Positions 2,254 to 63,000 of a DNA stretch of 64,000 bases are shown one piece after another. Below the pieces are notes generated by a model. The model searched no databases. It had not been told where the DNA came from and saw only the letters and a program-made list of their open reading frames with translations. This DNA comes from Chiloscyllium plagiosum. Lineage: Eukaryota. Location of the stretch: assembly GCF_004010195.1 (NCBI RefSeq), contig NC_057719.1:25056750-25120749 (forward strand), read 5' to 3'. Position 1 is the first letter of the stretch. The number at the start of each line of letters is the position of its first letter. The translations under genes and the position numbers were made by a program.

Positions 2254-2389
2254 GGCAAAAGTGAGGACTGCAGATGCTGGAAATCAAAGTTTACATTAGA
2301 GTGGTGATAAAGGGCTTTTGCCCAAAATGTCGATTTTCCTGCTCCTTGGGTGCTGCCTGACCGGCTGTGCTTTTCCAGCACCACTCTAA
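2254..2389. mobile_element. Short Penelope-derived fold-back element, decayed hammerhead remnant
   Basis: aaaagtgaggactgcagatgctgg...attagagtggtg then gggcttttgccc-aaaatgtc ... caccactctaat; same family as 4055-4369 and 29574-30336. Confidence 0.75.
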
Positions 2390-2404
2390 TGTTTATCTTT
2401 GGTA

Positions 2405-3247
2405 TACCAAGAAGGCATTTGGAATGCTTCTCTTTATTGGTCAGTGAATTGAGTGTAGATAGATTTTTAGAATGCGAGGTGCTGCATTTTGGAAAAGCAA
2501 ATCAGAGCAGGACTTCTACACTTCATGGTAAGGTCCTGGGGAGTATTGCTGAACAAAGAGACCTTGGAGAGGAGGTTCATAGCTCCTTGAAAGTGGAGTC
2601 GCAGGTAGATAGGATAGTGAAGAAGGCATTTGGTATGCTTTCCTTTATTGGTCAGAAAATTGAGTATAGGAGTTGGGAGGTCATGTTGTGGGCTGTACAG
2701 GACATTGATTCAGCCACTTTTGGAATATCGTGTACAATTCTGGTCTTTTTCCTATTGGAAGGATCTTGTGAAACCTGAAAGGGTTCAGAAAAGATCTACA
2801 AGGATATTGCCAGAGTTGGAGGATTTGAGCTCTGGGGGGAGGCTGAATAGGCTGCTTTCCCTGGAGCGTTGGAGGCTGAGGGGTGACCTTAAAGAGGTTT
2901 GTAAATCATGAAGGGCATGGATAGGATAAGTAGACAGCTCTTTTTTCCTTGAGTGGGGGAGTCCAGAACTAGAGGGCATAGGTTTAGGGTGGGATGGGAA
3001 AGATACAAAAGGGACCTAAGGGGCAACTTTTTCACGCAGAGGGTTGTGCGCATATGGAATGAGTTGCCAGAGGAAGTGGTGGAGGCTGGTACAAATGCAG
3101 CATTAAAAGGCATCTGGGTGGGTATATGAATAGGACGGGTTTTGAGGGATATGGGCTCGGTGCTGACAAATTGGCAGGATATCTTGTCGACATGCACAAG
3201 TTGGACCCAAAGATCTGTTTCCGTGCTGTACATCACTATTACTCTAA
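2405..3247 (+). mobile_element. CR1 LINE, 5'-truncated (end of RT ORF2 plus 3' UTR)
   Basis: Frameshifted ORF2 motifs CEVLHFGKAN, QRDLG, LYRTLIQPLLEYRVQFWS, ERVQKR, LRGDL; CR1 3' tail. A ~50 bp piece at the 5' end (about 2409-2458) repeats internal sequence at about 2620-2668. Confidence 0.9.
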
Positions 3248-3812
3248 GGTGTTATTCAGGATAAATTACAACATGCAAAGTGGTTTATAAAGTATTTGCA
3301 GTACAAAATATAAGCATTTCACTTCATGCTGGTGTGTATATTCTACACAAGCCTCCTTTCATGCTGCTGTAACTAACTCCATCAGTGTATCTATAGACCA
3401 TCTCTCATCTTTGCTTTTTAAATTTTATTGCAAGGTCACATTCTGTTCTATTGTCCTGTCTCCGTCCCTTACTCCTTCACAACCAGTTGCTCCAGTTGCC
3501 TCCTTTGCATAGGCTACAGCTTTTTCCTGTTTTTTTTAAGCTTGTGCGTAAGTTGTTGGCATCACTGGTTAGGCGAGCAATTATTTCCCATACTTTAATT
3601 ATCCTTGAGAAGCTGGTGGTGAAATTAGTTTAGTTGCACACCCATAAAACATGTGGCTTTGAAGGATCTGATTCTGTTTACGGAACTGAACCTTCCTGAA
3701 CCTACATTCATCCTGCCCTTAAAGTTCTGTAATCATTTTGGAAACCATGAGTGGCCATGCAGGGATTTCCTGGAATTAAGGTTTCTGCCAATCCCTATGG
3801 ATTTCAACATTC

Positions 3813-3878
3813 TGCTGTGCTGTTCCAGCAATAAAGTTTCAACTTTGATCTCCAGCATCTGCAGACCTCACTTTCTCC
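3813..3878. mobile_element. 66-bp Penelope-derived terminal fragment flanked by a perfect 59-bp direct repeat
   Basis: The insert tgctgtgctgttccagca...ctccagcatctgcagacctcactttctcc matches the PLE-derived terminus; 3754-3812 is identical to 3879-3937. Confidence 0.85.
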
Positions 3879-4116
3879 GCCATGCAGGGATTTCCTGGAA
3901 TTAAGGTTTCTGCCAATCCCTATGGATTTCAACATTCATTTTATCTAATGTTCTTTTTGGCACATGGTTCAATAAGGGTTGGTCACTTTGCTCACTCAGG
4001 TGGCGATTCCTCATGTGTGAACCTAAATGGTTGGTAGACTAATCTTTTGGGGAGGCAGCATCCGAGGAGCAGGAAAATTGACATTTCAGGCAAAAGCCCT
4101 TCATCAGGAATAGAGG

Positions 4117-4233
4117 NNNNNNNNNNNNNNNNNNNNNNNNNNNNNNNNNNNNNNNNNNNNNNNNNNNNNNNNNNNNNNNNNNNNNNNNNNNNNNNNNNNN
4201 NNNNNNNNNNNNNNNNNNNNNNNNNNNNNNNNN
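4117..4233. other. Assembly gap (117 N)
   Basis: Run of N characters. Confidence 1.
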
Positions 4234-4242
4234 CCTCTATTC

Positions 4243-4270
4243 CTGATGAAGGGCTTTTGCCCGAAACATC
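4243..4270 (+). ncRNA. Minimal hammerhead-ribozyme motif (stem III altered)
   Basis: CTGATGA-A-GGGC-tttt-GCCC-GAAAC-ATC; a mirror copy lies on the minus strand at 4080-4107. Confidence 0.6.
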
Positions 4271-5636
4271 GATTTTCCTGCTCCTCGGATGCTGCCTGAC
4301 CTGCTGTGCTTTTCCAGCACCACTCTAATCCAGACTCTGGTTTCCAGCATCTGCAGTCCTCACTTTTGCCTAATCTTTTGGGGAGTTGGCAAGATAGAAG
4401 GTAGCATAACTGAGCCTGATCCAACCATCAGCTTGCACTCCTTTGCAATGAGCCTAGATGTTAAACCCCAGTCAATTTTGCAAAGGCCCTTAACAAAGGC
4501 TGTCACTAAAGCAAAGCTGGGATGTGAAAACTCCTTAGACTGGGGAATAAATTGCAATCTTAAACTTTATAAAAGCATTTTTTGGAGATTTGATTTAACC
4601 AAAAACTAAAATTGGGGTTTAGTGAATGAATGGATTGGACAGATATGTTTTTTTTGTTGAAGGGCAGAGTTGCCCAGTTATTTCTTTGATATCAGCCACT
4701 CTGTGAGAAAGTGTATCAGGTATGAGCAGATAGGGGAAGAGTTAAGTTTTGGGTTGCAAGACAAAGGCTCAGCTAGCATGACTTTGACCAGATAAGAACT
4801 TGCAGAAAACAATGAGCTGCTGGAGGTAAGGGTAGTGGGTTAATGAGGTTTAAAAAATCCATTTGTGTAATGCCAGTTAACAAGGTGAAAAGCATCCATT
4901 GTATAATGTCAGATGGCTTGATCGTTACTGCTGAGGCTCGCTGCTTGTAACGGTCACCCAGTCAATATAGATGTGGCCTTATTTGGATGTTGCTCCCTGT
5001 AAGTGACCACATAATTCCTTAAGAATCTGCTGTTCGAGAGAAGACAGAGAATCCATGTCTCTATGCACTTGGGCGATTGTTCTGTCTTCCTCCAGGGCCC
5101 AGAATAAAGGTGGAGATAAAGCCATACTGTGTCTGAGTGTTTGTTTTGACTGATACAGGAATAGGGAAACGGGTCAACGTCTGGGGTTGACTGAGAAATG
5201 ACTGGACTCAGGCAATATCATTTTTCCATTTAGGATTTAAATTGTTAGTCTAGAAATCATGATATTATACTTTATGCTTGTAGCTATTGGTGTCATGCAG
5301 CTTTTTGGTAATAAAAGCAATGCTAGAAATATCAACAAGACAAATTATCTCAATTGTTAATCTTTCACCAGGTTGATTTAGAGGTTACGCATTAAATCCT
5401 ATAATGCCTCCTCAAGATGAATCTTTTCTATACTTGTACCATTATTCTTCCTCCCACTCTTACCCTTGGCTTACGGTCTCATCCTTTTTGGAATTTAATA
5501 TCTCTTGCCTTCCACCCTATGCTGCTTCATTCTTCAAGTAGTACCAGCACCTGTGATAGTTTGCTTCTGTTGTACTATATTGGAGCCTGGATTGTAACTT
5601 ATAAAATGCGTTTTGATATATTTCTTCTTTCAACAG

Positions 5637-5725
5637 ATGAAGATGAAGGTGACAGTGAAGACGAATCGGCTGATAAAGGAGATGGAGATGCACCTCCTTC
5701 CAAAAGGACCAGGAAACAATGTTGA
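5637..5725 (+). CDS. GON7: GON7 (C14orf142, KEOPS/EKC complex subunit), last coding exon
   Basis: Polypyrimidine acceptor tttcttctttcaacAG at 5636, phase 1. Encodes (D)EDEGDSEDESADKGDGDAPPSKRTRKQC*, an acidic stretch plus PxxKR end like the human GON7 C-terminus. Position and orientation match GON7-LYSET-ITPK1 synteny. Exon 1 lies upstream of the window. Confidence 0.8.
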
Positions 5726-6225: not shown

Positions 6226-6272
6226 ACTTTGTTTGTCTTGCTGCTCAACTTCACCTTAACAGAGGTATGGTT

Positions 6273-10397: not shown

Positions 10398-10475
10398 AAA
10401 GTTATGGTTCTGAAAAGATTGAGTAATTGCATAATATGACTATAATATGATCCCAGCTGGAATTATTACTAGACT

Positions 10476-11320: not shown

Positions 11321-13028
11321 CTAGCTCACAATAATATTGCCATTCGTTGATGCTCTGTTCATAGAGTCATAGAGATGTACATCATGGAAACAGACCCTTC
11401 GGTCCAATCCGTCCATGCCAACCAGCTATCTCAACCCAATCTGGTCCCACCTGCCAGCACTCTGCGCATATCCCTCCAAATCCTTCTGATTCATATACCC
11501 ATCCAAATGCCTCTGATAGGAAGGAGACCAGAGTTGCACGCAATATTCCAACAGTGGCCTAACCAATGTCCTGTACAGTCCCAACATGACATCCCAACTC
11601 CTGTACTCAATTCTCTGACCAATAAAGGAGAGCTTACCAAATGCCTTCTTCTCTAGCTTATCTACTTGCGACTCCATTTTCAAGGAACTATGACCCCGCG
11701 CTCCAAGGTCTCTTTGTTCAGCAACACTCTCCAGAACCTTACCATTGAGTGTATAAGTCCTACTAAGATTTGCTTTCTCAGAATGCAGCATCTCGCATTT
11801 ATCTGAATTAAACTCCATCTATCACTTCTTGGCCCATCTGGTCAAGATCCTGTTGTAATCTGAGGTAAACTTCTTCGCTGTCCACTACACCTCCAATTTT
11901 GGTGTCATCTGCAAACTTACTAACTGTACCTCTTATGCTCGCATCCAAATCATTTATGTAAATGACAAAAAGTAGAGGGCCCTGCACCGATCCTTGTGGC
12001 ATTCCACTGGTCACAGGCCTCCAGTCTGAAAAACAATCCTCCACCACCACCCTCTGTCTTCTATCTTTGAGCCAGTTCTGTATCCAAATGGCTAATTCTC
12101 CCTTTATTCTGTGAGATCTAACCTTGCTAACCAGTCTCCCATGGGGAACTTTTGATGAATGCTTTACTGAAGTCCATATAAATCACATCTACCATTCTGC
12201 CGTCTTCAATCCTCTTTGTTACTTCAAAAAACTCAATCAAGTTTGTGAGACATGATTTCCCACGCACAAAGCCATGTTGACTATCCGGAATCAGTCCTTG
12301 CCTTTCCAAATATATGTACATCCTGTCCCTCAGTATTCCCTCCAACAACTAGCCCACCACCGACGTCAGGCTCACTGGTCTATAGTCCCTGGCTTGTCCT
12401 TACCTCCTTTCATAAACAGTGGCACCATGTTAGCAAACCTCCAGTCTTGCACCTCACCTGTGACTATCGATGATACAAATATCGCAGCAAGGGGTCCAGC
12501 GATCACTTTTCTAGCTTCCCACAGAATTCTAGGTACACCTGATCAGGTCCTGGGGATTTATCCACCTTTATGCGTTTCAAGACATCCAGCACTTCCTCCT
12601 CTTTAATCTGGACATTTTGCAAGATGTCACCATCTATTTTGCTACTTTCTATATCTTCCATATCCTTTTCCACAGTAAATACTGATGCAAAATATTCATT
12701 TAGTATCTCCCCTATTTTCTGTGGCTCCACACAAATGGTGCCTTGCTGATCTTTGAGGGATCCTATTCTCTCCCTCATTATCCTTTTGTTCTTAGTGTGT
12801 TTGTAAAAACCCTTTAGATTCTCCTTAAATACTATTTGCCAAAGCTACTTTATGTCCCCTTTTTGCCCTCCTGATTTCCCTCTTACGTATACTCCTACTG
12901 CCTTTATACTCTAAGGATTCACTCGATCTATCCTGTCTGTACCTGACATATGATTCCTTTTTCTTAAGCAAATCCCAAATTTCTTTAGGCTATCCAACAT
13001 TCCCTATACCTACCAATCTTTCTTTTCA

Positions 13029-13187
13029 GGAGAAAGTGAGGTCTTTAGATGCTGGAGATCAGAGCTGAAAATGTGTTGCTGGAAAAGCGCAGCAGGTCAG
13101 GCAGCATCCAAGGAACAGGAGAATCGACGTTTCGGGCATAAGCCCGAAATTCCTGAAGAAGGGCTTATGCCCGAAACGTCGATTCTC
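13029..13187. mobile_element. Penelope-derived fold-back mini-element nested in CR1
   Basis: ggagaaagtgagg...gatgctggagatc terminus; perfect 28-bp inverted repeat at 13118-13145/13161-13188; degenerate 16-bp TSD at 13013-13028/13188-13203 (13/16 identical). Confidence 0.85.
13153..13180 (+). ncRNA. Minimal type-I hammerhead ribozyme motif, intact core
   Basis: CTGAAGA-A-GGGC-ttat-GCCC-GAAAC-GTC: CUGANGA and GAAA boxes, 4-bp stem II, palindromic ACGU stem III and a GUC cleavage triplet. Stem I is short and imperfect. Confidence 0.7.
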
Positions 13188-16100
13188 CCAGTCATTCCTT
13201 TCACCCTAACAGGAATATACTTTCTCTGGATTCTCGTTCTCATTTCTGAAGACTTCCCATTTTCCAGCTGTCCCTTTACCTGCGAACATCTGCCCCTAAT
13301 CAGCTTTTGAAAGTTCTTGCTTAATACCGTCAAAATTGGCCTTTCTCCAATTTAGAACTTCAACTTTTAGATCTGGTCTATCCTTTTCCATCACTATTTC
13401 AAATCATATAGAATTATGGTCGCTGGCCCCTCAGTCACCTGCTCTGCCTTATTTCCACAGAGTAGGTCAAGTTTTACACCTTCTCTGGTAGGTACACCCA
13501 CATACTGAATCAGAAAAGTTTCTTGCACCCACTTAAGAAATTCCTCTCCATCTAAACCCTTAACACTATGGCAGTCCCAGTCTATGTTTGGAAAGTTAAA
13601 ATCCCCTACCAAAAAACCACCCTATTATTCTTACAGATAGCTGAGATCTCCTTACAAGTTTGTTTCTCAATTTCCCTCTGATTATTTGGGGTCCATAGTA
13701 CAATCCCAATAAGGTCATCATCCCTTTCTTATTTCTCATTTCCACCCAAATAGCCTCTCTGGATGTATTTCCAGGAATATTCTCCCTTAGCACAGCTGTA
13801 ATGCTATCCCTTATCAAAAACGCCACTGCCTCTCCTCTCTTGCCTCCCTTTCTATCCTTCCTGTAGCATTTATATCTTGAAACATTAAGCTGCCAGTCCT
13901 GCCCATTCCTGAGCCATGTTTCTGTAATTGCTATGATATCCCAGTCCCACATTTCTAACAATGCCCTGAGTTAATCTGCCTTCCCTGTTATGCCCCTTAC
14001 ATTGAAATAAATGCAGTTTAATTTATTAATCCTACCTTGTCCCTGCCTGCTCTGACTGTTTGACTCGCTTCTGTACTCAAATATACAAGTCTCAGATTGA
14101 TCTCTTTCCTCAGTATCTCCCTGGGTTCCTAATCCCCCCACCTTACTAGCTTAAATCCTCCCAAGCAGCTCTAACAAATCTCCCTGCCAGTATATTAGTC
14201 CCCTTCCAATTCAGGTGCAAACCATCCTTCTTGTACAGGTCACTTCTACCCCAAAAGAAATCCAATGGTTCAAAAATGTGAATCCTTCTCCCATACACCA
14301 GCTCCTCAGCCATGCATTCATCTGCTCTATCCTCCTATTCCTGCCTTCACGAGCTCATAGCACTGGGAGTGATCCAGATATTACTGCTCTCAAGGACCTC
14401 CTTTTTAAATTTCTGCCTAACTCTCTGTCATCTCCCTTCAGAATCTCAACCTTTTCCCTTCCTCTGTCGTTGGTTCCAATGTGGACAATGACCTCTTGCT
14501 GGCCTCTCTCCCCCTTGAGAATATTCTACACCCTCTCTCTGAGACATCCTTGATCCTGGCACCAGCGAACCAACACACCATTCTGAATTTTTCCTGCTGG
14601 CCACAGAAACTGGAGAATCCCTTAACACAATTGATCACTTGGAACCCGACGTACCCCTCATTGCATTAGACACAGTCTCGATATCATAAACTTGGCTGTT
14701 TGTGCTATGTTCCCCTGAGAATCCATCACCACCTACATTTTCCAAAACAGCATACTTGTTTGAAATGGGTATAGCCACAGAAGGCACCTGCACTAGCTGC
14801 CTACCTCTCTTCCCTTTCCTGGAGTTAACCCATCTATGTGACTCTGAGATTTTTCCCCCTTCCTTTCACTGTCATCCATCCCATACTGTTGCTGTTGCAA
14901 ATTTCTCATTGCTTCGAACTGTCTCTCCAACCGATCCATTCGATCTGATAAGATTCACAACCAACAGCATTTATAGCAGATATAATCCACAGTAACTCTT
15001 AAACTCTCTTTAAACTCCCATATCTGACAAGAAGCGCATATCACTCTACAAAAGGCCAATTTTGCTTCTTCACAATCTACAGACCCAGAAAATAACCCCA
15101 TCTTATTCCTCTACAAAACACTACCCCAGGTTAAATTAATAGTTATGGCTTATGTTTTAAGTTTAATCAAGAGACAAATCTCAAAAACCTATAATCAAGA
15201 AAGAACCCTCTCCACTCACTACTGCAGACTTTCTGTAGGTCACTTAAAAACAATACACTTACCTGCTTCTGTGCTGTGAACTTCACCCAAACAGTTCCTT
15301 CACAATCAGTTGTGAATTTCACTGTTTGTTAATTTTCCCAGACGCACTCCGATGTCCAGCAATACATGAATTCAAACAGCAAAGGCAGTAACTGTGCAGG
15401 TTCAAAGCTGTGTCAGTTTCTTTCTCTCTCTCTCTCCCCTGCACTGACCTCACCATGTGCTTCCTTTGTCTGTTCTTCTCCCATTTCAAACTGTTGTTTT
15501 GACTTGTTTTTTCCAAAGTTGTCAAATGATCTGTTAGAAGCACAGAATGATTGCAACATAGGTGGTCCTCATTCAACCCACCATATCGGTCTTGGCTCTA
15601 TGTAATAACAATCCACCTAGTACAACTTATTCACTCCCTTTCAACGTTCCTTTCAAGCTACATGATTATGCAGTTTCCGGTTATCTGAGCAAACTGACTG
15701 GTGTGGGGGTATTGGAGGTCTCTGCAGCAGCAAAAAAAAAGTACAGCATAGCTTCCCCTCACTTTTCCCATTTTCTCACCAGTTAATCATTCAACTCTTT
15801 TACAGGCCCCAAATTAACCTGCTGCCACCTCTGTGTCAGGCAGTGCATTACAGCTCCAAACAACTTCCTGTTAAAACAAGCATTGATGGAGGATTTTAAA
15901 ATCATTTTAAATTTGCATCCACTGGTTCTGGATTCTTCCACCCATGGAAACAGTTTCTCCCCATTCTATCCTGTTCAGACCTCGAATGATTTAAATATCT
16001 CTACCACATCTTTTCAAGGGGAATTATGCATTTCTCAAACCTATTCACGTAAGTGAAGCTTTTGAACTTTGAATAATCATTGTGAATCTTTTCTGCACCT

Positions 16101-16789
16101 TTATCTAACATTTTAGTGTCCAGAAGGAGAGATATACTCCAGTGTTTTAGACAAAAAAAAAAGTTGCTGGAAAAACCCAGCAGGTCTGGCAGCAAATGTG
16201 AAGAGAAAGTAGAGGTAACATTTTGGGTCCAGTGACCCTTCTTAGCTAGGTAAAGGTGGTATATGTGCTGACGACAAGGGTGGGAATGTTGGGAAGTAGT
16301 AAATGATCAGTGGTAATGGAGACCAGAGACAGAGAACAGAACATTTTAAATATTTTTATCATACCTTCCTTGGCAAGCAGTGGGAAATCTGCCATTATTT
16401 AGAAGCTGATGAAATGTTATATTGTGACTTTCTGGACTGCTATAATGCCATTTGAAGAGGTGGCAGCAAGGATGCCTGTTTTGGTTGGAATAAACTTGAA
16501 TCTCTTCCAACATTAATTTTTCATTTGAGGTGTGCAATTAGTTTGAAGTTTGGATCATAACTGCACTTTTAAAATGTTTTGTACATATGTTACAAAGTTC
16601 ATATTTTAAGGAAACTATTTCTCTACCACCTCTTTTGATAGCCCAGCTTGGTCTGTTTACATATTATGTTACTTGTTGGAAATTTCTAAACTTTATTTTC
16701 ATTAGTAAGCCAAGGCTTGAAAGTTTGTTTCTCCGGGGATCACTGATGTACTTTCAATTTATTTTTAACTCATCAAAAACCACTTAAAA

Positions 16790-20871: not shown

Positions 20872-21267
20872 TCATGTGTCAATTATTTTCAATCTATTGA
20901 TTTGATTGGAGGCTTTGACAAAAGCTTGGTGTCGATTGCAAACAACAGCCATGTAGATTGGGAAAATACAGTAACCAACTGTTTTGGGATTGGCTCGTGT
21001 ACACGAGTAAAGGAACAAGAAGATTTGCAGGTATGGAATCAGAAACAGGAAACCCCACAGCCAGAATGGGAGTGAAAACAAGCGGGCTGTTACTGTCTGT
21101 GTCCAAGAGGCTCCATTGCCCAGGTCCTCAGAGTTCCGTTGAATATGCTCTAAAGCCAGTTGGTTGTAAGTTTCATTTATTTCAAATACATAATAAATGG
21201 CTGCAGCACTTGCTAGAAGATATAATCCTACTCCAATCCAACCCATTCGCTGGCGAAAGTTCATCAT
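20872..21267 (-). CDS. LYSET: Lysosomal enzyme trafficking factor (TMEM251/GCAF), 131 aa, complete single-exon CDS
   Basis: MMNFRQRMGWIGVGLYLLASAAAIYYVFEINETYN...PYLQIFLFLYSCTRANPKTVGYCIFPI...CNRHQAFVKASNQI...IDT closely matches the short human isoform; two hydrophobic TM segments. The splice acceptor (polypyrimidine + CAG, 21287-21289) lies 19 nt upstream of the ATG. Confidence 0.97.
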   Translation of the reverse strand: MMNFRQRMGWIGVGLYLLASAAAIYYVFEINETYNQLALEHIQRNSEDLGNGASWTQTVTARLFSLPFWLWGFLFLIPYLQIFLFLYSCTRANPKTVGYCIFPIYMAVVCNRHQAFVKASNQINRLKIIDT

Positions 21268-21274
21268 TCTCCAT
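21182..21274 (-). promoter_or_regulatory. Out-of-frame upstream ORF overlapping the LYSET start (30 aa)
   Basis: gttATGG 7 nt before the main ATG, with G at -3 and +4; reads MENDELSPANGLDWSRIISSSKCCSHLLCI*. Translation is not demonstrated. Confidence 0.5.
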
Positions 21275-21631
21275 AACCTACTTTATCTGCAATGTAAAAA
21301 AAAGGAAGAAAAATGGGTTACAATAAATGAACATCTCAGCCAATCTACAAGGGAATCATTGACTTGTGATTTGCCCTACCACCATGAGACTATAAACAGT
21401 TCTCCCACTGAAGACGACAGGATTATCAGTGTTAAAACAAGAACAAACTTGTAAATGCACGGTCAGCAACTGAAAGAAGCTGTGTTGATCATTACAGCCT
21501 CTCTAATGTTTGAATACTGTCCTACTCATTCTGCCATCATTTCTACAGTGACCCCTCAACCAACACCTCCATTTTTTATCATTCCCGCTGCTTTCAAAAG
21601 CAAATATGTTTTTGGCCTTAGTGATCTCCTT

Positions 21632-21687
21632 GCTGTGGTTCTGTTCGCCGAGCTGGAAGTTTTTGTTGCAAACGTTTCGTCCCCTGT
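21632..21687 (-). mobile_element. 56-bp Penelope terminal fragment with a 15-bp TSD in the LYSET intron
   Basis: cttagtgatctcctt at 21617-21631 and 21688-21702; the insert resembles the terminus of the 57194-58214 element and contains GAAACGTT on the minus strand. Confidence 0.75.
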
Positions 21688-22249
21688 CTTAGTGATCTCC
21701 TTCCTACTTGGCATATATTCTGCAATTCCAGAAAGTATTTATGTAAAAAAACTCAAGGCCACACCTGCTGAGATGCCAGCAACTCAGACTTAGGGAGAGG
21801 CCATTCAGCTTCTGAATGTGGGGGAAGATATTCTTCATCCAACTTGCAGTCACACAAGAGTGTTCACATTGCTGAGAGACCCTTTCAATGTTCTCTGGGG
21901 TGATAAAAAGACAAATGCTATATCTCCTACTCTTGGATGGAAAGGTGCATGGGAGTGGTGGGAGAAGACCATGTTAAGGGTGACTAAGTAATTGCCTCCA
22001 TTACACCCAGGTCTATAGTTCCCTTGCACTGAAACAATAGAAGGAAGGAAGATATTGGGGACATCAGGCTAGAGGTGGAGGATGGCCCATTGAAAGTGCA
22101 GGCTAGTGCATGGACAGTCAGGATAAGATTAACTTATCATATTCTGGGAAGGAATGGGTTGAGTGCAGAGGGATAAAGTAGATGGGCAGGGAAAAGGACC
22201 ACAACTGCAGTGGTGTGGCAATTCTCGGAGAAGAAAGGAAAGCCTGTCT

Positions 22250-22640: not shown

Positions 22641-24779
22641 ATTCATTTCAAGTGTTAGTGTCTGGAATGTTGGGAGCTTGCTGGAAATATAGCTGAAAGA
22701 AACCATCAAGGGCTTTATCAAAAAAAGAGTACCTTTGTTTCAAATTACCCTGATCAAACAATGTATTGTTCCCCTTTATGCAATTGGAAAGCATTCTTCA
22801 ATATATCTGCCTTGCCAGATCTTCTTTTAAAAAGATTGAGATGTGCTCCACATTGCAAAGTAGAAGCAGAATTCAGCAAACTTCTTTGCCACATTGTCAA
22901 ATGGATGAGTGCAATGAGAACAACTGTGCTCTCATATATACATTGAAATAGATTGCAATGTTCACTCCCTTCCTTTCAAACAAAGATGCTGGCTCCAAAG
23001 GGAGTATAACAATTGATGTTAATCACTCATCAGTTCTTTTTCCAACACAGCATTTTTCTCTCTCAGCCAACTAAATAAGGCTATTCTACATCAGTTAAGT
23101 GCTTGATCATTTCAGAAACGACTGTTAAGACAATTCGTCTGATGTACATTTGATACATTCACATACATCCATTCCTACCCAGAAGCAACATATTTGTGTT
23201 AGACAACTCAATGATTAGTGTTACTGGAAAGAAATGGCAAAACAGGCTTTAAACCGAGATAAAAACTGCCTTAAAAATTTACTTAAGAACTAATGTGATC
23301 AATTTTGCTTTGGAACATGCTAATTTAAGCAGACATCATAATTGCTAACAGGATGAATTATTACAACAACAACTGGACTATCAGCTCATCCACTAGTCAA
23401 CAAAAATCAGTAAATTTTCAATCATCAACCGGGCTACAAATGTATTGCCACCAGATCAATGGCATGCTGAGACACCTATAAAAACAGTCAGTTTCTCCAA
23501 CAGCGAGCTATTTGGAAATTAATTTGTTTGCGGGAGGGGATTTGCTCCATGCATAAAGACAGAGTAGGGCGTTTGTTTCTTTGAGCATGCTCCAATAAAT
23601 ACGACCAGGTCTGATCTTATGCCTTAACTCTATGTTCCTGTACTTGCTCCTTATCCTTCAATTCCTTTAGCATTGAAAAATATACCAACATTTGTCTTGA
23701 AAATGCACAGATTATTCACAGTCCTAAAGATTCACAATCCTCTCAGTGAAGAAATTGTTGCTCATTGCAGTTCTAAATAATTGATCCCTTATCCTGAGAC
23801 TCTGTGTTCTAGATTCCCCAGTCAGGAAACCGCATCAAAATGTTGCAATTAAACCACATTCTTCTAAATTCCAGGGAATACAGCAAACTATAATCAAAGG
23901 GTAACAAAGCAGTAACCCTTAAAAAAAAGGCACTGCAGGAAAATGCAAAGTGTTCTGGAAGGTTCACTTTCAGGTATAAATCAGGCAATACATTCTCCAA
24001 TGATTTCACATAAAGATGGCATTGTAGCAATTTACTGCTTCAGCACCAACTTAAAACCACATACGGTCACACAAACACAAGTTAGCGAGGCAACTACTTA
24101 GAATGAAGTATTGAAAATTGAATTTCTTTTGCAAAAGGTCTGAAGAGTACAAAGCCAAGGTCTTTCCCAAAGGATACTACAATCGAATAAAATTGTTCAA
24201 ATTTATTTAAGTAATAAATTTATTTATGGAGTTACTCATCACATCTTATAGAAACATTCTGAACAGCTCTTCATTGAATGAGTACTGTTGTAAACAGGTA
24301 TGATTTCATGTTAACCTTTTGGTGCTGTAATTCAGAGACAAGTGTTGGCAATCCCAATAATTTCCTTGTGCTTGTATGAACAGCACAAGATCTTTCATCC
24401 ACGTGAGCAAGCAGTTGAGGTTTCAGAAGTACAGTCCTCTGACAAAGCAGCGCTGCCCCAGAACAGCACTGCTGTGTGAACCCAAGATGATCTGCTCAAG
24501 ATCTTCCCGTGTAGTTACAAAATTGTTATTAAGACCAGCCCTGACACAATGACAGACGGACATTCATGAAGCACTTTGGGATACTCCGCGGTCAGGCAAA
24601 CCATTCCTGGTCAATTTTGGGCACTTTCGAACTTAAGTCGCTGTTCCAATGCAGTAAAACGTGGCAGGAAGAGACCCACACACAGCAACAGCCGGTTAAT
24701 CTGCGCTGTTAATAATGTTGTCAGTCATAACACGGCGGAAAACTTCGTCGCTCTTATTTGTCAAGAGTACCAGGGAGGG

Positions 24780-25350
24780 GTGATTTATTTTTAAACGACC
24801 ACGTGAGATAGAGAGCAGTTGAAGGTTTTATGCAAAAAAACCGGCTCCTCCGACAGTGCAGCTGCACCCCTACCCCGGGCAGGTCTGTCCCGGGGGGGGG
24901 GGGGGGGGGTAGGAGAGTGTCAGCTCAGGTTATGGTGCAGATGGCCACCCGAGAACCAGGAGGCTGCGGTTTCCCGGGCGGGGGTTGGTGAAGAGAGACA
25001 GCTCCACGAGCCGGTCCTCTCTCTGAGGGGCTGACGGAGTGACCGAGCTGTCAATACCCGGGGCCCCCTAACCCACACTCACCATTGTCAAGAAAGGAAA
25101 CGCTGCTGTGGCCGGGGAGGGGAAGGGAAGGGGCCGCCGCGGCGCTCGGTCCCCCTCCCTGCTTCAATCCATCGCTTCCGTTCTCTCTGTTTCCGCGGCC
25201 TCCGCCGGCTGACGAGTCACAAATCGACCCACTTCCGTCTCCTCACCAACTCGATCCGGGCTGTTGCCGGGGAAACCAGGGCACAAGAGGTGACCTCTAA
25301 TACCAGCGGCCCGTGTGAGCCCCAGCGCGCCTCTAGCGTCTGGAGGACCT
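24780..25350 (-). promoter_or_regulatory. LYSET: CpG island / LYSET promoter
   Basis: GC- and CpG-rich island 3.8 kb upstream of the LYSET coding exon; ETS-type acttccg and gcttccg motifs; G18 run at 24892-24909. Confidence 0.8.
25083..25230 (-). other. LYSET: Probable non-coding LYSET exon 1
   Basis: Consensus donor ...GACAATG|GTGAGTGT on the minus strand (intron begins at 25082) inside the CpG island. The TSS position is approximate. Confidence 0.6.
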
Positions 25351-25399
25351 CACTTCACCTCCCTCTACACACACTGGGACAAGGCAATTGAGTCACAAA

Positions 25400-25900
25400 T
25401 TCGATGCTACCTTGAGGTATAAAACCTGCGCCCACACCTCCGCCCAAGGCACCAAAGGATTTGTTCAAGGATTTTTCATGCACATCCAAACACTGTCATC
25501 TACTGTGTCCATTGCTCTCAATGTGGTCTCCTCTACATCGGGGAGACAGGATGCCAACTTGCAGACCGTTTCAGGGAACATCTCCGGTACACATGCACCC
25601 AACAACCTCGCCACCCTGTGGCCGACCACTTAAACTCCCTCCTCCATTACACCAAGGGCATGCAAGTCCTGGGCCTCCTCCACCACCAAGTCCAAGCCAC
25701 TCAATGACTGAGGAGGAAGTCTCATCTTACGCCTTGGGACCATTCAACCGCACGGCATCAACATCGATTTGAAAAGTTTCCAAATCCCCTCCCACTCACC
25801 TCTTCCGGGATCCAATCCTCCAACTAGGCACTGCCCTCTTGACCTGTCCTGCTCCTTGAATGCTGCCTGACCTGCTGTAGCACCACACTTCTCAACTCTA
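25400..25900 (+). mobile_element. Penelope-like element fragment (GIY-YIG endonuclease remnant plus terminus)
   Basis: Translates to VIYCVHCSQCGLLYIGETGCQLADRFREHLR; ends in the tgctgcctgacctgctgt terminus. Confidence 0.85.
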
Positions 25901-25939
25901 TTCTTGATTAAGTTGTCTGAACCTTGTGGTGTCAGACCA

Positions 25940-26194: not shown

Positions 26195-26430
26195 CAGGAG
26201 TAAACAGAAAGCACTGGAGAAACTCATGCAGGTCTGGCAGCATCTGAGGAGAGAGAAACACAGTTAATATTCCAAGTCCAATATGACTCTTCCTAGTGTC
26301 TTCAAGGGCCATATCAGATTCAAAACATTAACTCTGATTATTTTTCCGTACCGTAGATGCTGACAGACCTGCTGAGTTTCTCCAGCATTTTTCACTGTTA
26401 TTTGATTTTGGGCTCTGCAATAATTTGCTT
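26195..26430. mobile_element. Fold-back Penelope-derived mini-element (decayed)
   Basis: ctggagaaactcatgcaggtctggcagcatct ... agatgctgacagacctgctgagtttctccag inverted arms. Confidence 0.7.
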
Positions 26431-41725: not shown

Positions 41726-42552
41726 AGTAAGACTTCCCGTCCTCTTTCCTTTCTGATTAATTGTATTATATTGATGGCTTTTCTTTCTGTTGGGAGACTT
41801 TAAGAATCTTGGGAATTTTGGGAAATTCCAACCAATGAATTCACAATCTTGGCTGACATTTCCCTTTAAGGGTGTAGGATGGAGGCCATCGGGTTCCAAA
41901 CACATGTCAGCCTTGAGTTCCATTAGATTTCCTAGTACATTTTCTCCAGTGATTGTGAATGTTCTAACTTTCTCCCTCCCTATTAGCCACTGCTATATTA
42001 CTCTTCTTGGGACGCTTTCTGTATCTTCTGAGTTTGAATTTTGATTGTTGTCACATGAACTGTAATACAGTGAAAAGTGTTGTTATGCATGTTATACAGA
42101 CAGATCCTACACACAAAGTGGATCGGGGTCGCAGAACCGAGTAAGACTTCCCGTCCTCTTTCCTTTCTGATTAATTGTATTATATTGATGGCTTTTCTTT
42201 CTGTTGGGAGACTTTAAGAATCTTGGGAATTTTGGGAAATTCCAACCAATGAATTCACAATCTTGGCTGACATTTCCCTTTAAGGGTGTAGGATGGAGGC
42301 CATCGGGTTCCAAACACATGTCAGCCTTGAGTCCCATTAGATTTCCTAGTACATTTTCTCCAGTGATTGTGAATGTTCTAACTTTCTCCCTCCCTATTGG
42401 CACTGCTATATTACTCTTCTAGGGACACTTTCTGTATCTTCTGAGTTTGAATTTTGATTGTTGTCACATGTACTGTAATGCAGTGAAAAGTGTTGTTATG
42501 CATGCTATACAGACAGATTCTACACACAAAGTGGATCAGGGTCGCAGAACCG
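41726..42552. repeat. Tandem duplication, 414/413-bp unit
   Basis: Copies at 41726-42139 and 42140-42552; AGTA microhomology at the junctions. Confidence 0.93.
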
Positions 42553-42865
42553 AGTACAGTGTTACAGCCACTGAGAAGGTGCAGAGAGAGAGATCAAAAT
42601 TAATAAGAGATGTCCATTCAAAAGTCTAATAACTATGGGGAAGATGCTGTTCTTGAATCTGTTGTGAGTGTATAAGGAGTATAGTAGGGGTCTGAGCCCT
42701 GTCGTCTTGTAGGGCACAGGTGTCGAGCATTATGATGGAGGTTTGTTCCCTATTCTTACTGGTTACAGTCAATGGGTCAAGAAGTCCATGATCCAGTTAC
42801 AGAGAAGGGAGCTGACATCTAGGTCTCTGAGTTTAGAGTTTGTTTGGAATTATGTAGGAGTGTAA
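42443..42865 (-). mobile_element. Rex/Babar-type LINE fragment nested in CR1
   Basis: Minus strand encodes PLLYSLYTH (Rex1-like RT motif); 3' tail at about 42443-42500. Confidence 0.6.
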
Positions 42866-48029: not shown

Positions 48030-49555
48030 CTCATCGAGTCCTACAGCATGGAGGGAAGCCCTTTGGCCCAAACTGGTCCATGCCGACCAAAATGTTCATC
48101 CATGCTAACCCTGCTTCTCTGCACCTGGCCCATATCCTTCTAAGCCATTCCTATCCATGTATTTGTTCAAATGCCTTTTCAATGTTATTAATGTCCCTGC
48201 CTCAACCATGTCTACTGGCAGCTCATTCTGTATGTGTACCACCCTCTGTGTTTAAAACAAAAATTGCTCCTCAGGTTTCCTTTTTATTTTTTTCCCCATC
48301 TAACCTTAAACTGATGCCTTCTAGTCCTCAATTTTCCAACCCTGGGAAAAAGATTAAGTGCATTTATCCTCAGCATGCCTCTCATAATCTTATATACTTC
48401 AATAAGATCCCCCCTCAGTTTCCTAAATTAAAAAGAAAATGTCCTAGCTTGTCCAGACAACTCAGACCCTTGAGTCCTGGCAACATCCTTGTAAATTTCT
48501 TCTGCATTACTTCTAGTTTAATAACATCCTTCCTGAAGCAAGATGACCAAAACTGAACACAATACTCAAGTGTGGCCTCCCCAACATCCTGTACAACTGC
48601 AACATAACTTCCCAACATGTACATTCAGTGCCCAAACTGATGAAGGCCAGTGTGCCAAAAGCCTCCTTCGCTGCCCTGTCTACCTCTGACTCCAATTTCT
48701 GAGAACTATACACCTGAATTCCAAGGTCCCTCTGTTTCACTACATTCTTTAAGGTCCTACCATTCACTATGAAGCTCCTACCTTGATTTGACTTTCCAAC
48801 ATGCAAGACCTCACACTTATCTATATTAAACTCCGTTTGTCATTTCTTGGCCCACTTTCCACAATTGGTCAAAGTCCAGCAATTATTGATAATCTTTCTC
48901 ACTGTCCACGATACTTCCTATCTTAGTCTCATCTGCAAAGTTATTAATCATGCCTTGTACCTTCTTATCCAAGTCATTGGTATAGATAACAAATAGCAAT
49001 GGGCCCAGCACCGATCCTGAGGCACTCCAGTAGTCACAGGCCTCTAGTCCAACAAGCATCCTTCCACTATTGCCCTCTGCTACCTACCATCAAGCCAATT
49101 GTGTATCCAATTTGCCGCCTCTCCTTGGATTCCATGTGATCTAACCTTCATAATAGCCTACCTTGTGGAACCATCTCCAAAGGCCTTCCTGAAATCCATA
49201 TAGACTATTACTACCACCTTGCCCTCGTCAACCTTCCCGGTCATTTCATCAAAGAGCTCTAACAAATTTGTGAGGCATGATCTCCCATGCACAAAGCCAT
49301 GCTGACTATCTCTAATCAAACCCTAACATTCCAAATGCATGGATATCTTATCTCTCAGAATCTTCTCGATTAACTTACCTACCAAAAATGTTAGGCCTAC
49401 TGATCTATAGTTTCCAGGTTTTTCTTTGCAGTCCTTCTTGAATAATGGCACAACATTCGCTACCCTCCAGTCTTCCAGGACCACCTCATGGTTAATGATG
49501 ATGGAAAAATATCAAGCCAGGGTCCCCCCAATTTTTTTCCTCTAGCCTCTTGCAG
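48030..49555 (-). mobile_element. CR1 LINE, 5'-truncated RT region
   Basis: Minus ORFs HVGKSNQGR..QRDLGIQV, LEYCVQFWS, FTRMLPGL; tail at about 48030. Confidence 0.9.
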
Positions 49556-51576: not shown

Positions 51577-51739
51577 AAAAGCAAATTACTGCGGATGCTG
51601 GAATCTGAAACCAAAAGAGAAAATGCTGGAAAATCTCAGCAGGTCTGGCAGCATCTGTAAGGAGAGAAAAGAGCTGACGTTTTGAGTCTAACTGACCCTT
51701 TGTCAAAGCTAGCATTTTTCCAGCATTTTCTCTTTTGGT
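51577..51739. mobile_element. Fold-back PLE-derived mini-element with a 15-bp TSD
   Basis: aaaccaaaagagaaaatgctggaaaa / ttttccagcattttctcttttggttt inverted arms; TSD ttgtaattgaaggtt at 51562-51576/51740-51754. Confidence 0.8.
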
Positions 51740-54318: not shown

Positions 54319-54761
54319 AAGTTAAAAATCACACGGCATCAGGTTATAGTTCAACAGGTTTATTTGGAAGCACTAGCTTTCAGAGCGCTGCTCCTTCATC
54401 AGGTGGTTGTGTCAACTTGAGCGGGTTCATGATCCGTAATCCTTTTGATCTTTTCCTGCATTTCTGCAGAAACTTGATTGTGTGTCGATATGTGCAATCT
54501 TCTTGGAGATCCTCTCGACTTTAAGCCAGCAGTTAGTGATGTCGGTGGTAGTCATGATTTGGAGATGCTGGTGTTGGACTGGGGTGCACAAAGTTTTAAA
54601 ATCACAGGTTATAGTCCAACAGGTTTATTTAGAAGCACTAGCTTTCAGACCGCTGCTCCTTCAAAGCTCGTGCTTCCAAATAAACCAGTTGGACTATTAC
54701 CTGGTGTTGAGTGATTTTTAACTTTGTACACCCTAGTCCAACACCGGCATCTCAAACATGA
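54319..54761. mobile_element. Composite PLE-derived insertion (tandem plus inverted termini) with a 12-bp TSD
   Basis: TSD cttgccagaagt at 54307-54318/54762-54773; 54554-54760 is a palindrome with ~90-bp arms; a third partial terminus lies at 54320-54410. Confidence 0.8.
54371..54405 (-). ncRNA. Minimal hammerhead ribozyme motif, second family
   Basis: Minus strand: cac-CTGATGA-A-GGAGC-agc-GCTCT-GAAA-GCTA-gtg; 3-bp stem I, 5-bp stem II, palindromic AGCU stem III, CUA triplet. Confidence 0.65.
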
Positions 54762-57193: not shown

Positions 57194-58214
57194 TAGTGAG
57201 ATTTGAGAAGATTTGTAAGTCAGGTCGAGGTTCTGGATGTAGGTTTGTTCACTGAGCTGGAAGGTTCATTTTTCAGATGTTTTGTCACTGTACTAGGTAA
57301 CATCTTCAACGAGCTTCCAGACGAAGCACTACTGGTGTTTCCTGCTTTCTATTTATATGGTTGGGTTTCCATGGGCTGGTGATATCATTTCCTGTGGTGA
57401 CATCATTTCCTGTTCTTTTTCTTAGGGGGTGGTAGATGGGATCCAAGTCAATGTGTTTGTTGAAAGAGTTCTGGTAGGAATACCATGCTTCTAGAAATTC
57501 TTGTGTGTGTCTCTGTTTGACTTGTCCTAGGATGGCTGTGTTGTCCCAGTTGAAGTGGTGTCCTTCCTTATCTGTATGTAAGGATACTAACCACTCTCCC
57601 CTACATCAAATACAATTTGAAATTGATTGCTAGACTATTCAGACCTCTTGGCATCATGGTAGCCCACAAACCCACCAACACACTAAAACAGCAGCTAATG
57701 AACTTGAAAGGCCCTGTACAGACAACAAGCAAAACTAATGTCATTTACAAAATACCATGCAAGAACTGTAACAAACACTACATTGGACAAACAAGCAGAA
57801 AACTAGCCACCAGGATGCATGAACATCAACTAGCCACAAAACAACATGACCCTCTCTCACGAGTATCCTTACATACAGATAAGGAAGGACACCACTTCGA
57901 CTGGTACAACATATCCATCCTAGGACAAGCCAAACGGACACACGCACGAGAATTCCTAGAAGCATGATATTCCAACTGGAACTCTATCAACAAACACATT
58001 GACTTGATCCCATTTACCACCCCTGAAAAAAGAACAGGAAATGATATCACCATAGGAAATGACATCACCAACCCAAGGAATCCCAAACCTATAAATAGAA
58101 AGTAGGAAACACCAGCAGTGCTTCGTCTGGAGGCTCGCTGAAGATGTTACCTCGTATGGTGACAAAACATCTGAAAATGAACTTTCCAGCTCAGTGAGCA
58201 AACCTACATCTAGA
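57194..58214. mobile_element. Penelope (GIY-YIG) retroelement, 5'-truncated with an inverted terminal copy
   Basis: ORF 57617-57967 contains NVIYKIPCKNCNKHYIGQTSRKLATRMHEH (GIY-YIG). Arms about 57231-57588 (-) and 57862-58214 (+); TSD actgtagagtga at 57182-57193/58215-58226; decayed hammerhead at 58138-58171. Confidence 0.92.
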
Positions 58215-59894: not shown

Positions 59895-60230
59895 AGATCC
59901 CTACAGTGTGGAGACAGGTCATTTAGCTCAGCAAGTCCACATCGACCCTCTGAAGAGCATTCCACCCAGACCTGTCCCCCTACCCTGTACTTCCAATGGC
60001 TAACGCACCTAACCTATACAACCCTGGAGAGTATGAGCAATTTTTAGCTTGGCCAATCCCCCCAAGTTGCACATCTTTGGATTGTGGGAGGAAACCGGAG
60101 CACCTGGAGGAAACCCATGCAGATACGGGAGAATGTGCAAACTCAATACAGACAGTCACTCGAGGGTGGAATTGAACTCGGTTCCCTGGCCCTGTGAGGC
60201 AGCAGTGCTAACTACTGAGCCACTGTGCTG
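59895..60230 (-). mobile_element. HE1/V-SINE
   Basis: Reverse complement of HE1 (gtgaggcagcagtgctaac; ggaggaaaccggagcacctggaggaaaccca). Confidence 0.88.
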
Positions 60231-61574
60231 TGGCCTGTCAAGACCACAGGCAGTAGAGACAGCATGCCTCCACTCTGCAAGCTCTCCTGACTTTACCTTT
60301 TTAGCTATTGACCTTGCAAAGTAACATGACCCTAAATATTTAAGACCCTCATGTGCATGAATTGCATTTATTCCATTTTCCGCAGTCAAACTTTAGCACC
60401 TAAAAATTACATAAGAGAGAACGTGAACCCGACATTGTGTCCTATTTCATCTGTCTTGATTAAATAGCCCTGATAGCTATCTAAATCTAATTGGAGTGGA
60501 CCAAGCTCTTTTTTTTTTCCCCTCAAATCCTACCTGAGATACTAAGATATTTAAACTTGAAGTTATTGTTCTTTTCTGACCTAGTTCCTCACACACCAAG
60601 TGGACCAATAATGTACATTGTAATCTAAATCTGGTCTAACCAAGGTCTTGTCTTGTACAAAGACAAACCAATGTGTTTTATTGTAGGTTGAATACACTTG
60701 TCTGTACAAACCAATTTGCTTTAGGTTTTGTTTACTTTGAATCTTAAGCTTTTTTCTGTTGACAATTTGCAATTCAGTTTGATGTAAAGAAGAATTATTG
60801 GTCTTGCCTGTGTACATAACCAAGATAAATGGTGTTATGTGCCACTTACTAGACCTTAGACCATCCTCCCAATTAATTTTAATCTGCTAACATAAATTTG
60901 TTCTTCACCCTGCAGCTTTGTTTGTATTGGATTCATGCCAAATTTTAATTCAGCTACGTTCACTATGTACAGTAGTGAAATGATCTACTTTGCATAGCGT
61001 GCAGTACGGTGGTGCTCAACATTGAGATCTGAAATGAAAATCATGTGGTGTAGGCAGGATGCAAGTAGCTCTGCTGTCTGTGTATTGACAGAGGGCTTGT
61101 ACTTGGGTTAATGCACAGGGAACCTCCAGTTTGCTTTCCTTTCTTTAACTTACCACAATCAATTCAGGAATCCAACTGTGAACGACATGTATAATAAATA
61201 CTCTTATGGTGCATTATAATTTGCACCATTCCATTCACTCTTGTCCCCTATGCTCACTGACCATGTCTGGCACTAATGCAGCAACATCTTGATTTTAACA
61301 ATCTCATCCTCTTCTCTCCCTATCATTGCAACCTCCTTTAGCTTTATGCTCTTGCAGAATTCTGTATTTGTATATGCAGCTTTCATTTCCTTTACCTTGC
61401 TGTTTGTGGCTGTGCCTTCAACCATTGGGGCCCTTAGCTCTGAAATTTCCCTTGTCAACCTTCTTGTCTCTCATGCCTTTTTTTCTTAGCTTTAACAGAA
61501 ACCCCTCTGAAAACAAAGGGCATTTGTTCAACTGTCTTAATATTTCCTATGTCTAGGTGTGAAATTTGGACTGA

Positions 61575-61805
61575 AGTAAAAGTGAAAAGTGAAGCCACCA
61601 TAGTCTTAGCAGATCATACAGCTGCTCTCTTTTAGAGAGAGAGAGAGAGACAACTGGCAGAGGTTTACTCGGAGGGTCACCACACCAGGCAAGGTAAAGA
61701 GGTTCAGAAGGAGAATCCTTCATGGTAACCTCCGTCGGTGTGGGAATTGAACCTGAACTGTTGGTGTCACTGAGCATTACGAACCAGCCATCCAATCAAT
61801 TGATC
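61575..61805 (-). mobile_element. tRNA-derived SINE, family not assigned
   Basis: Minus-strand tRNA-like head with B box ggttcaattcc, and a (cacttt)n-like tail. Confidence 0.6.
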
Positions 61806-62399
61806 TAGCATACATCTAAAATTCACAGCTTGTAACGGCTGGGAATAATGCTTTCTTTGAAACGTGTTGCAAAGTTACCTTTATTCCTCAGCGCTAGGAT
61901 TTAGCAGCTCCCAAAATGCTGGCTTACAGTATTCCTGTGGGAAATCAAGAGCAGGTGTAGTATCTTTTCACTCTATTCTGCTCTTTGAATGTCTGCAAGT
62001 CGAGCAACATAAGCCTTACCTGCAGGTTGTCTGTTCTCCTTCTCAGTTTGGGAATGAAGGGTAGAGGATAGAATGGAATTGAGGACAAGTTAACATTCAT
62101 TTGATTCATCTAAAATTAACATAATAATCTCTAAGTGACATCATGATCACAAACTAGGCGTATCCTCCGAGTGGTCTGTGAACTAAGGTTTTCTTGTATA
62201 CGCTCCTATTAACTTGTTGTATGTTTTGATTACTAAAAAAATGACCAGCAGTGCAGCTTTGTTTTAAAACAAGATCAAAAGTTGGTTTAATATGTAGCTA
62301 TTGCTGTAAGTTAATTGAGTAAAAAGTAAAGTTATTAGCTAAAACACATACAAAGACTTGAAATAAGTAAGAATAAAAGTTACACATCAAGAGGAATAT

Positions 62400-63000
62400 T
62401 AGATCAGTTTGTAAGTTTGCTCTCTGAGCTGGAAGGTTTGTTTTCAGACATTTTGTCACCATGCTAGGTAACATAGTCACTGAGCCTCCAGTGAAATGTT
62501 GGTGTTCTGTCCTGCTTTCTGTTGATGTCTTGGTCAATTAAGGTGGGTGATATAATTTCTGGTTCTTTTTTGCAGAGGATGGTAAATGGGTCCATCTTGA
62601 TGTGTTTATTGATGGAGTTCCAGTTTGAATGCCAGGCCTGTAGGAATTCCTGTGCATGTCTCTGTTTAGCCTGTCCTAGAATGGATTTGTTGTCTTAGTC
62701 AAAGTGGTGTCTTTCTTTGTCTGTATGTAGGGATATTAGTGAAAATGGGTCATGTATTTTGGTGGCTCGTTGGTGTTTGTGTATCCTGGTGGCTAGTTTT
62801 CTGCCTGTCTGTACGATTTGTAGTATTTGTTGCAGTCCTTGCAAGGCATTTTGTAAATGTCATTCCTTTTGCTGGTTATTGGTATAGGGTCTTTTTTGGG
62901 TTCATCAGTTGCTGTTTCAGTGTGTTGGTAGGTTTGTGGGTGACCATGATGCCAAGGGATCAGAGTAGTCTGGTAGTTATCTCCAAGATATCTCTGATGT
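62400..63000 (-). mobile_element. Penelope fragment (GIY-YIG remnant plus terminus)
   Basis: NDIYKMPCKDCNKYY; homologous to 57600-58200; decayed hammerhead at about 62447-62480. Confidence 0.85.

Follow-up and report, generated by a model that had tools for sequence, protein, structure and literature searches.

The window described here, a 64,000-nucleotide stretch of the shark Chiloscyllium plagiosum (NCBI RefSeq assembly GCF_004010195.1, contig NC_057719.1, positions 25,056,750 to 25,120,749 of the forward strand), possesses many hammerhead ribozyme-like motifs. These are very probably minimal type I hammerheads situated in the 3' pseudo-LTR (LTR, long terminal repeat) of three families of endonuclease-bearing Penelope-like elements (PLEs) and of an older, likely similar fourth family, present as short 5'-truncated stubs which likely no longer cleave. 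Stem II is GGGC/GCCC in family A, GGAGC/GCTCC in family B, GTYACC/GGKRAC in family C and GGGTC/GACCC in the old family D. The motifs are real and represent a known PLE feature in new shark host families; the link between hammerheads and PLE pseudo-LTRs was published in 2014 (Cervera and De la Pena, PMC4209133). The finding as such extends this feature to sharks and is chiefly useful for repeat annotation. Its main use is mechanistic, as the end statistics of the copies bear on the inverted ends and one-sided tails of PLEs and on the role of the hammerhead.

A preliminary description of this stretch, made by eye from its letters, had listed eleven motifs, and the motif or a decayed form of it was present at all 11 sites. 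A strict core was defined as CTGANGA, one extra base, a stem II of at least 4 bp and GAAA-NN-UH. Seven of the 11 listed motifs passed this test (4080, 4243, 13153, 30206, 33015, 34277 and 54374), and the window contains 7 strict cores compared with a mean of 0.09 and a maximum of 1 in 100 dinucleotide shuffles. AAAA replaces GAAA at the other four sites (29641, 57276, 58138 and 62447), and the first box is also broken at 57276 and 62447. A strict core together with a palindromic 15.2/16.2 pair was observed at only three of the 11 sites (13153, 30206 and 54374). The fainter remnants described near 2310, 16220, 38025 and 51680 were also real, and the GGGTC/GACCC stem II was seen in remnants only. 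The density, first put at roughly one motif per 5 kb, becomes about one per 2.4 kb with family profiles, which detected 27 remnants in the window. Target duplications and geometry showed that the 11 listed motifs represent 7 insertions, because three pairs are head-to-head halves and 33015 and 34277 sit in a 295-nt local duplication.

The window is unexceptional for its genome. A genome sample was taken as 140 stretches of 10 kb at round positions on large contigs, representing 1,352,153 non-N bases (1.35 Mb of the 3,556 Mb genome); L-numbers in the text, such as L194, denote sampled loci. Strict cores numbered 82 in the sample (61 per Mb) and remnants 439 (325 per Mb, about one per 3 kb), with 422 remnants per Mb in the window. 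In the first 60 stretches 31 cores were observed, and ten shuffled versions of these contained 0-1. Genome-wide, exact intact cores numbered 86,254 in family A, 16,625 in family B and 6,580 in family C, where the count covers one loop length only, while the reversed-sequence control gave 0 in each family. The total of at least 109,459 in 3.56 Gb (31 per Mb) is notable beside the axolotl genome, which is far larger and has 126,247 canonical hammerheads. It is also far higher than the counts of about 4,000 in coelacanth and about 9,000 in Xenopus (PMC4209133), the methods and assemblies being different. Extrapolated to the whole genome, the sample densities correspond to roughly 0.2 million strict cores and 1.1 million remnants. 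Assembly gaps often begin right at young PLE stubs (L002, L011, L013, L016, L019, L023-L025 and 4117-4233 of the window), and inverted pairs and long copies are probably under-counted with gaps starting at such stubs.

All elements of the minimal type I architecture with palindromic stem III, as proposed earlier, were found: the CUGANGA and GAAA boxes, the extra base before stem II, the G10.1-C11.1 pair, stem II itself and the 15.2/16.2 palindrome. At least 79 of the 82 strict cores belong to recognisable family types. The 15.2/16.2 positions are CG in 40 of them, GC in 17, CA in 11, TG in 9 and other in 5, CA and TG being products of CpG decay; the palindrome is CG in families A and C and GC in family B. 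Only two bases lie between A15.1 and U16.1 in every family, so that helix III is absent. Loop II and N7 differ between subfamilies and the boxes stay constant. Stem I is 3-4 bp long in subfamily A3 and in family B, and only 2 bp with a mismatch in A1 and A2. The core, the extra base between A9 and G10.1, the G10.1-C11.1 pair, the palindromic 15.2/16.2 pair and the missing helix III are all shared with the minimal hammerheads of PMC4209133, which likewise occur as several families per genome, mostly as single motifs from truncated PLEs.

The differences in stem II between families had been read as covariation. Within a family, covariation was clear in stem I of family C, where pair 3 is T-A in 32, C-G in 24, G-C in 9 and other in 4 of 69 copies; these are three subfamily states and represent two or more events, not 65. 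Between families the covariation rests on structural reading, because plain alignment misplaces family C: a cross-family MAFFT alignment put it out of register with A, B and D, and no pair counts were used from it.

The Penelope origin is borne out by the upstream family sequence, which runs into remnants of GIY-YIG endonuclease and reverse transcriptase (RT), and by a full-length family B copy. Family A hammerheads are preceded by a GIY-YIG remnant and a pyrimidine-rich 3' region. For 28 of the 30 family C loci the GIY-YIG match is followed by a hammerhead, and RT sequence lies upstream of GIY-YIG; family D shares the A-type tail. In the window, GIY-YIG remnants are situated upstream of 58138 (Pfam, E=4e-4) and also upstream of 29641, 57276 and 62447. 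RVT_1 was matched by L064 of family C (40.4 bits, above cut-off) and L193 of family B (27.6 bits, just below), and GIY-YIG by L180 of family A above cut-off and by L182 and window positions 57641-57961 just below. The open reading frame (ORF) thus combines RT and GIY-YIG as in endonuclease-bearing PLEs, and every copy seen is broken. The full-length copy, L194, has direct pseudo-LTRs, matching repeats whose cores are 3,460 nt apart. After the first repeat the ORF starts at about 130 nt, and a frameshifted RT and endonuclease ORF lies between the repeats; its best relative is 70% identical and carries RVT_1. The shared upstream sequence spans a continuum of lengths between 0 and about 740 nt and lacks a fixed 5' end (extents of the window's B and C copies were computed without self-matches).

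A Zn-finger-like cysteine motif in the RT-endonuclease linker marks Neptune/Nematis according to PMC8557442. Such a motif is present in translations of L180, L182 and L188 of family A and L194 of family B, and absent in those of L062 and L063 of family C. Judged from these translations, A and B appear Neptune/Nematis-like and C Penelope/Poseidon-like.

Certain results weigh against the identification. Rfam (4,227 families, E up to 10) returned 9 weak matches with no hammerhead among them. Three of the five RT or GIY-YIG matches fall slightly under the curated cut-off, and neither ORF piece of L194 was matched by Pfam. In this gappy assembly, whose long open frames are mostly N runs, an intact full-length ORF was found for no family, and no full-length copy of A, C or D was found. 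For family D no link to an ORF was found.

The hammerhead-bearing insertions of the window are as follows, with the strand given where one was assigned.
2253 to 2390: family A head-to-head stub, an inverted long tail and a plus-strand arm with its start within the first hammerhead box; the target duplication, read by eye, is 13 bp long and has one mismatch.
4053 to 4378: family A head-to-head pair with cores at 4080-4107 (minus) and 4243-4270 (plus); it spans an assembly gap (N at 4117-4233), and the 15.2/16.2 pair is altered in both cores.
13030 to 13188: family A (A2) head-to-head stub with an intact core at 13153-13180 (plus); the minus arm begins at stem II and bears the long tail, and as RNA the arms are predicted by folding to pair into a 28-bp hairpin burying the core (z = -9.2).
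16146 to 16243, minus strand: family D remnant with stem II GGGTC/GACCC and a decayed core.
21603 to 21689, minus strand: family C (C2) remnant starting in loop II, absent from the preliminary description.
26203 to 26390: old family D head-to-head stub with decayed cores.
29574 to 30335: single family A insertion with a 10-bp target duplication; the minus arm has a GIY-YIG remnant, a decayed core (29641-29668) and the short tail, the plus arm an intact core (30206-30233) and the long tail.
33012 to 33108, plus strand: family A solo stub with short tail and 14-bp target duplication, beginning at the hammerhead 5' edge; its core (33015-33042) has C15.2/A16.2.
34274 to 34370, plus strand: duplicate of the 33.0-kb stub, contained in a local duplication (295 nt, 99% identity) and so not an insertion of its own.
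38024 to 38110, plus strand: family D remnant with a hardly recognisable core.
38365 to 38505: family B head-to-head stub with truncated cores.
51597 to 51713, minus strand: family D remnant with a short inverted arm.
54319 to 54760: single family B insertion flanked by a target duplication of 12 bp; it has three ends, namely an inverted long-tail arm, a pseudo-LTR reaching about 125 nt into the ORF start, and a second end with an intact core (54374-54402) and short tail.
57194 to 58213: single family C insertion with a 12-bp target duplication; the minus arm has a core (57276-57308) and long tail, the plus arm a GIY-YIG remnant (57641-57961), a core (58138-58171) and short tail, and G12 is lost in both cores.
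62402 to 63010, minus strand: older 5'-truncated family C copy with a GIY-YIG remnant and a decayed core (62447-62480).

The 5' ends of the stubs cluster at the hammerhead in two families. Positions were taken relative to C3, and for family A they were scored in 73 young uncensored copies from 199 sampled copies and those of the window. Thirty-six of the 73 begin at -5 to +10, with 14 at -5 to -3, and two at the predicted cut (+26 to +30). Of 69 family B copies, 41 start at -13 to +8 and none at +27 to +30. If stubs began where the ribozyme had cut the RNA, they would be genomic traces of cleavage in vivo. A few pairs do start near the predicted site, for example L203 at +26/+28, and 8 of 179 uncensored ends lie at +26 to +30, but the distributions in young family A and in family B make this explanation improbable and led to its rejection for the bulk of the copies; a minority class starting at the cut site is possible. 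RNA from relatives also speaks against it, with no pile-up of molecule ends anywhere, the library being fragmented poly(A) and so weak for true ends. On an A2 copy the commonest loose 5' ends in this RNA were at -4 (143 reads), repeated in two contig sets, and at +5 (102 reads), seen in one set. In the raw RNA reads of one relative, 95% of aligned reads continue into unlike sequence. As the 5' ends lie at the hammerhead edge and not at the cut, and the RNA runs on, the template usually carried an uncut hammerhead. The -4 end may mark where transcription begins, a block posed by the ribozyme in its folded or protein-bound state, or endonuclease cutting at ATT. For the Anolis carolinensis Poseidon element (PAc; Frangieh et al. 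2024, PMC11167929), RNA-seq gave no reads ending at the hammerhead cut site, and the hammerhead cleaves only with the element's protein and is dispensable for insertion.

The 3' ends fall at two sites 35-40 nt apart in families A, B and C, giving the optional one-sided tail of PLEs. Truncation of the 5' end is variable (0-740 nt), an inverted 5' copy is common (206 of 439 remnants are head-to-head), and the target duplications of the window insertions are 10-14 bp. In 5' truncation, partial tandems, inverted 5' copies, a 30-40 bp tail often at one end only and variable target duplications, the shark copies resemble the endonuclease-bearing PLEs Neptune and Penelope/Poseidon (PMC3846280, PMC8557442), and unlike these the typical shark insertion is only 100-250 nt. 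Opposite-strand pairs 100-700 bp apart had already been recorded (PMC4209133). One long and one short tail per pair was observed in 32 of 39 family A pairs, 15 of 18 in family B and 6 of 6 in family C, a total of 53 of 63 classifiable pairs, with 6 further head-to-head pairs that could not be classed; independent choice would give at most half. PMC3846280 and PMC8557442 give verbal descriptions of the one-sided tail, and counts for this long/short rule or for the 5' clustering of A and B at the hammerhead were not seen in the available text of the two.

In PAc the tail is likewise defined by two internal sites at which reverse transcription starts (PMC11167929). The PAc ORF begins inside the hammerhead, with the start sites 111-118 nt into the ORF (PMC11167929), whereas in family B about 130 nt separate the core from the ORF start, which lies at the long-tail end. 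The available text on PAc contains no analysis of inverted pairs. A segment of the family B ORF start breaks about 120-125 nt into the ORF in 5 of 30 loci (window 54403-54560, L097, L098, L101 and L112), a count possibly biased as the query itself ended at that point. The break may mark a third site at which reverse transcription starts, comparable to those inside the PAc ORF. A deletion family as the source of the ORF-start-to-hammerhead junction at 54.4 kb was considered and rejected, since each of the five loci joins a different 3' point.

One head-to-head junction, -1/+9, was found 781 times. Its geometry was read at 23 loci, the first 20 of the 781 and 3 from the random sample, one of them classed by eye. 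The long tail was on the arm with the shorter 5' reach in 18 of the 23 and on the other arm in 5, and subfamily markers vary among the loci. As tail side and markers both vary, the junction was made anew and not inherited from one master.

We tentatively read these roughly one million shark insertion records as a trace of two-ended priming, in which Neptune-type cDNAs stop at the 5' edge of an uncut hammerhead, which may set stub length as a transcript start or roadblock more than by cutting. The element's protein would nick both target strands, and each nicked end would prime a cDNA from either of the two start sites, which would account for one tail being long and the other short. Synthesis of both cDNAs would usually halt within 90-130 nt, where the uncut hammerhead has its 5' edge, and the cDNA ends would then be joined, often through a few shared bases. 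Priming on two strands matches the PAc protein, which cleaves and extends both target strands (PMC11167929).

The same elements could instead form the inverted arm by fold-back of the first cDNA, with endonuclease resolution giving the one-sided tail. Self-priming from palindromic junctions was proposed in PMC3846280 and a tail from endonuclease-mediated resolution in PMC8557442, and in the sample the long tail belongs to the arm reaching as far or further 5' in about two thirds of long/short pairs. A copied arm cannot outrun its template at the 3' end, however, nor begin upstream of the template's stop, and this rule is broken by 18 of the 23 loci of the -1/+9 junction and by 9 of 32 sampled family A long/short pairs (by at least 5 nt). 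Priming from both nicked strands is therefore favoured and fold-back seems rather unlikely, although self-priming on an antisense or tandem template, a variant suggested by PMC3846280, may still apply.

Several observations are unfavourable to two-ended priming at the hammerhead edge. The arms of one pair often share private changes, as fold-back would have it; such changes fit one template molecule or later gene conversion, not two independent RNAs. Family C showed no pile-up of 5' ends at the hammerhead, with 3 of 23 between -13 and +10. In older copies some -5 to -3 ends are artefacts of missing references, and the count was therefore restricted to young copies. From the asymmetric tails, the geometry of the junction and the hot spot of 5' ends, sharp predictions follow for the in vitro system already established for PLEs.

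The repeats had also been described as non-autonomous, retrozyme-like elements, and this did not hold: they have no fixed 5' end, they join the PLE ORF upstream, and same-strand neighbours are rare and form no unit. Metazoan non-LTR retrozymes (PMC7229834; bioRxiv 10.64898/2026.07.22.740005) share the type I hammerhead and the PLE pseudo-LTR link with the shark copies. They are tandem non-coding units of 150-450 nt with canonical hammerheads and circular RNAs, while the shark copies are ORF-linked stubs that have minimal cores and stand alone or head-to-head. On three defining tests the retrozyme reading fails. Instead of non-coding units apart from an autonomous element, the family sequence enters PLE ORF remnants. 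Instead of a canonical type I hammerhead with helix III, every family has a core without that helix. Nor was a repeated hammerhead unit of 150-450 nt seen among the same-strand neighbours listed in the 1.35-Mb sample, and the 3,556-Mb genome may still contain rare arrays. Within 1 kb, the nearest neighbour of the 439 remnants gave 206 head-to-head, 185 solo, 34 tandem and 14 tail-to-tail cases. The 34 same-strand spacings range from 57 to 805 nt and differ in every case, and those listed, except for partial tandems with internal deletions such as L128, are insertions that are nested or unrelated.

That the repeats are retrozymes which are transcribed, cut, circularised and reinserted by PLE proteins is accordingly very improbable, and for the bulk of copies already largely refuted. 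Most copies are indeed short and non-coding, one junction recurs 781 times, and a few insertions have two same-strand hammerheads around an internally deleted element (for example L128, 334 nt; L104, 389 nt; and 54.4-54.7 kb of the window, about 265 nt). Non-LTR retrozymes occur in vertebrates, and tandem ones were found in the sole chondrichthyan sampled (bioRxiv 10.64898/2026.07.22.740005). Against this, the recurrent junction has its long tail on either arm and stands in various subfamily backgrounds, and the relative's RNA continues into unlike sequence in most reads. The same raw poly(A) run contained one back-joint, with 4 reads from 2 starts, and this type of library cannot reveal circles. 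Sharks are not named in the available text of PMC4209133, including two of its three supplement files. Literature searches combining hammerhead or Penelope with shark terms found no description of these families among the matches listed, and the supplements of the 2026 preprint may hold shark counts.

Decay of the copies resembles that of neutral DNA. The CpG-type decay noted before was confirmed for G12, which is altered in 20% of 121 family A cores, as often as the other CpG sites (C15.2 17%, G16.2 20%). Most copies are probably inactive, as was supposed, with 3 of the 11 listed motifs intact and catalytic positions decaying like their neighbours. Single copies decay like neutral DNA, and the structure suggests that the ribozyme would be under selection in active master elements only. 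Dimer cleavage has reportedly been worked on by Lunse et al. in 2017. Intronic copies domesticated to act on host transcripts such as ITPK1 pre-mRNA are highly improbable. The exact intact cores, at least 109,459, and the reading through of copies in host RNA of relatives would permit such a role, but the decay of catalytic positions, the few intact motifs and the hairpin into which head-to-head pairs are predicted to fold, burying the core, all argue against it. Minimal hammerheads are, moreover, inactive as monomers and cleave weakly as dimers (PMC4209133).

Two coding exons of neighbouring genes were identified in the window.
20875 to 21282, minus strand: coding exon of TMEM251 (LYSET), PF15190, E=1.4e-66.
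39450 to 39545, plus strand: first coding exon of an ITPK1-type gene, PF17927, E=1.4e-06.

The statement that many motifs lie inside introns was judged from these two exons. It is likely for the four listed motifs beyond 39.5 kb, which would lie in an ITPK1 intron, because a motif expected for the next ITPK1 exon was not found within the window. An acidic exon-like stretch at 5600-5722 (plus strand) has a weak DUF4611 match (E=0.058) and probably represents the final GON7 exon, in which case the motifs at 2.3-4.3 kb may also be intronic. A CpG island at 24500-25500 is probably the TMEM251 promoter, and an older family A GIY-YIG remnant (25300-25900) directly adjoins it.

PLE stubs are often nested in or adjoin stubs of other PLE families (L245, L211, L176, L177 and L193), which suggests an insertion preference of PLEs for pseudo-LTRs. 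Shark gene models (NOXP20-like, PPP1R12A-like and septin 5a; P0006, P0007 and P0008) contain family B PLE protein sequence, and at L181:5093-6193 (minus strand) an apparent host exon continues in frame into a PLE RT piece. The PLE sequence in gene models may represent exonised fragments or annotation errors. Near-identical local direct duplications were seen at 32996-33290 and 34258-34552 (295 nt, 99%) and at 41726-42556 (period about 414 nt, 96-99%), and both may be recent duplications or assembly artefacts. Other repeats of the window are RT remnants of long interspersed elements (LINEs) and a tRNA-like short repeat family (11993-12125, 37739-37871 and 49016-49148; 25945, 26583, 28370, 53779 and 60127), which we take to be a CR1/HER1-type LINE and an HE1-type short interspersed element (SINE).

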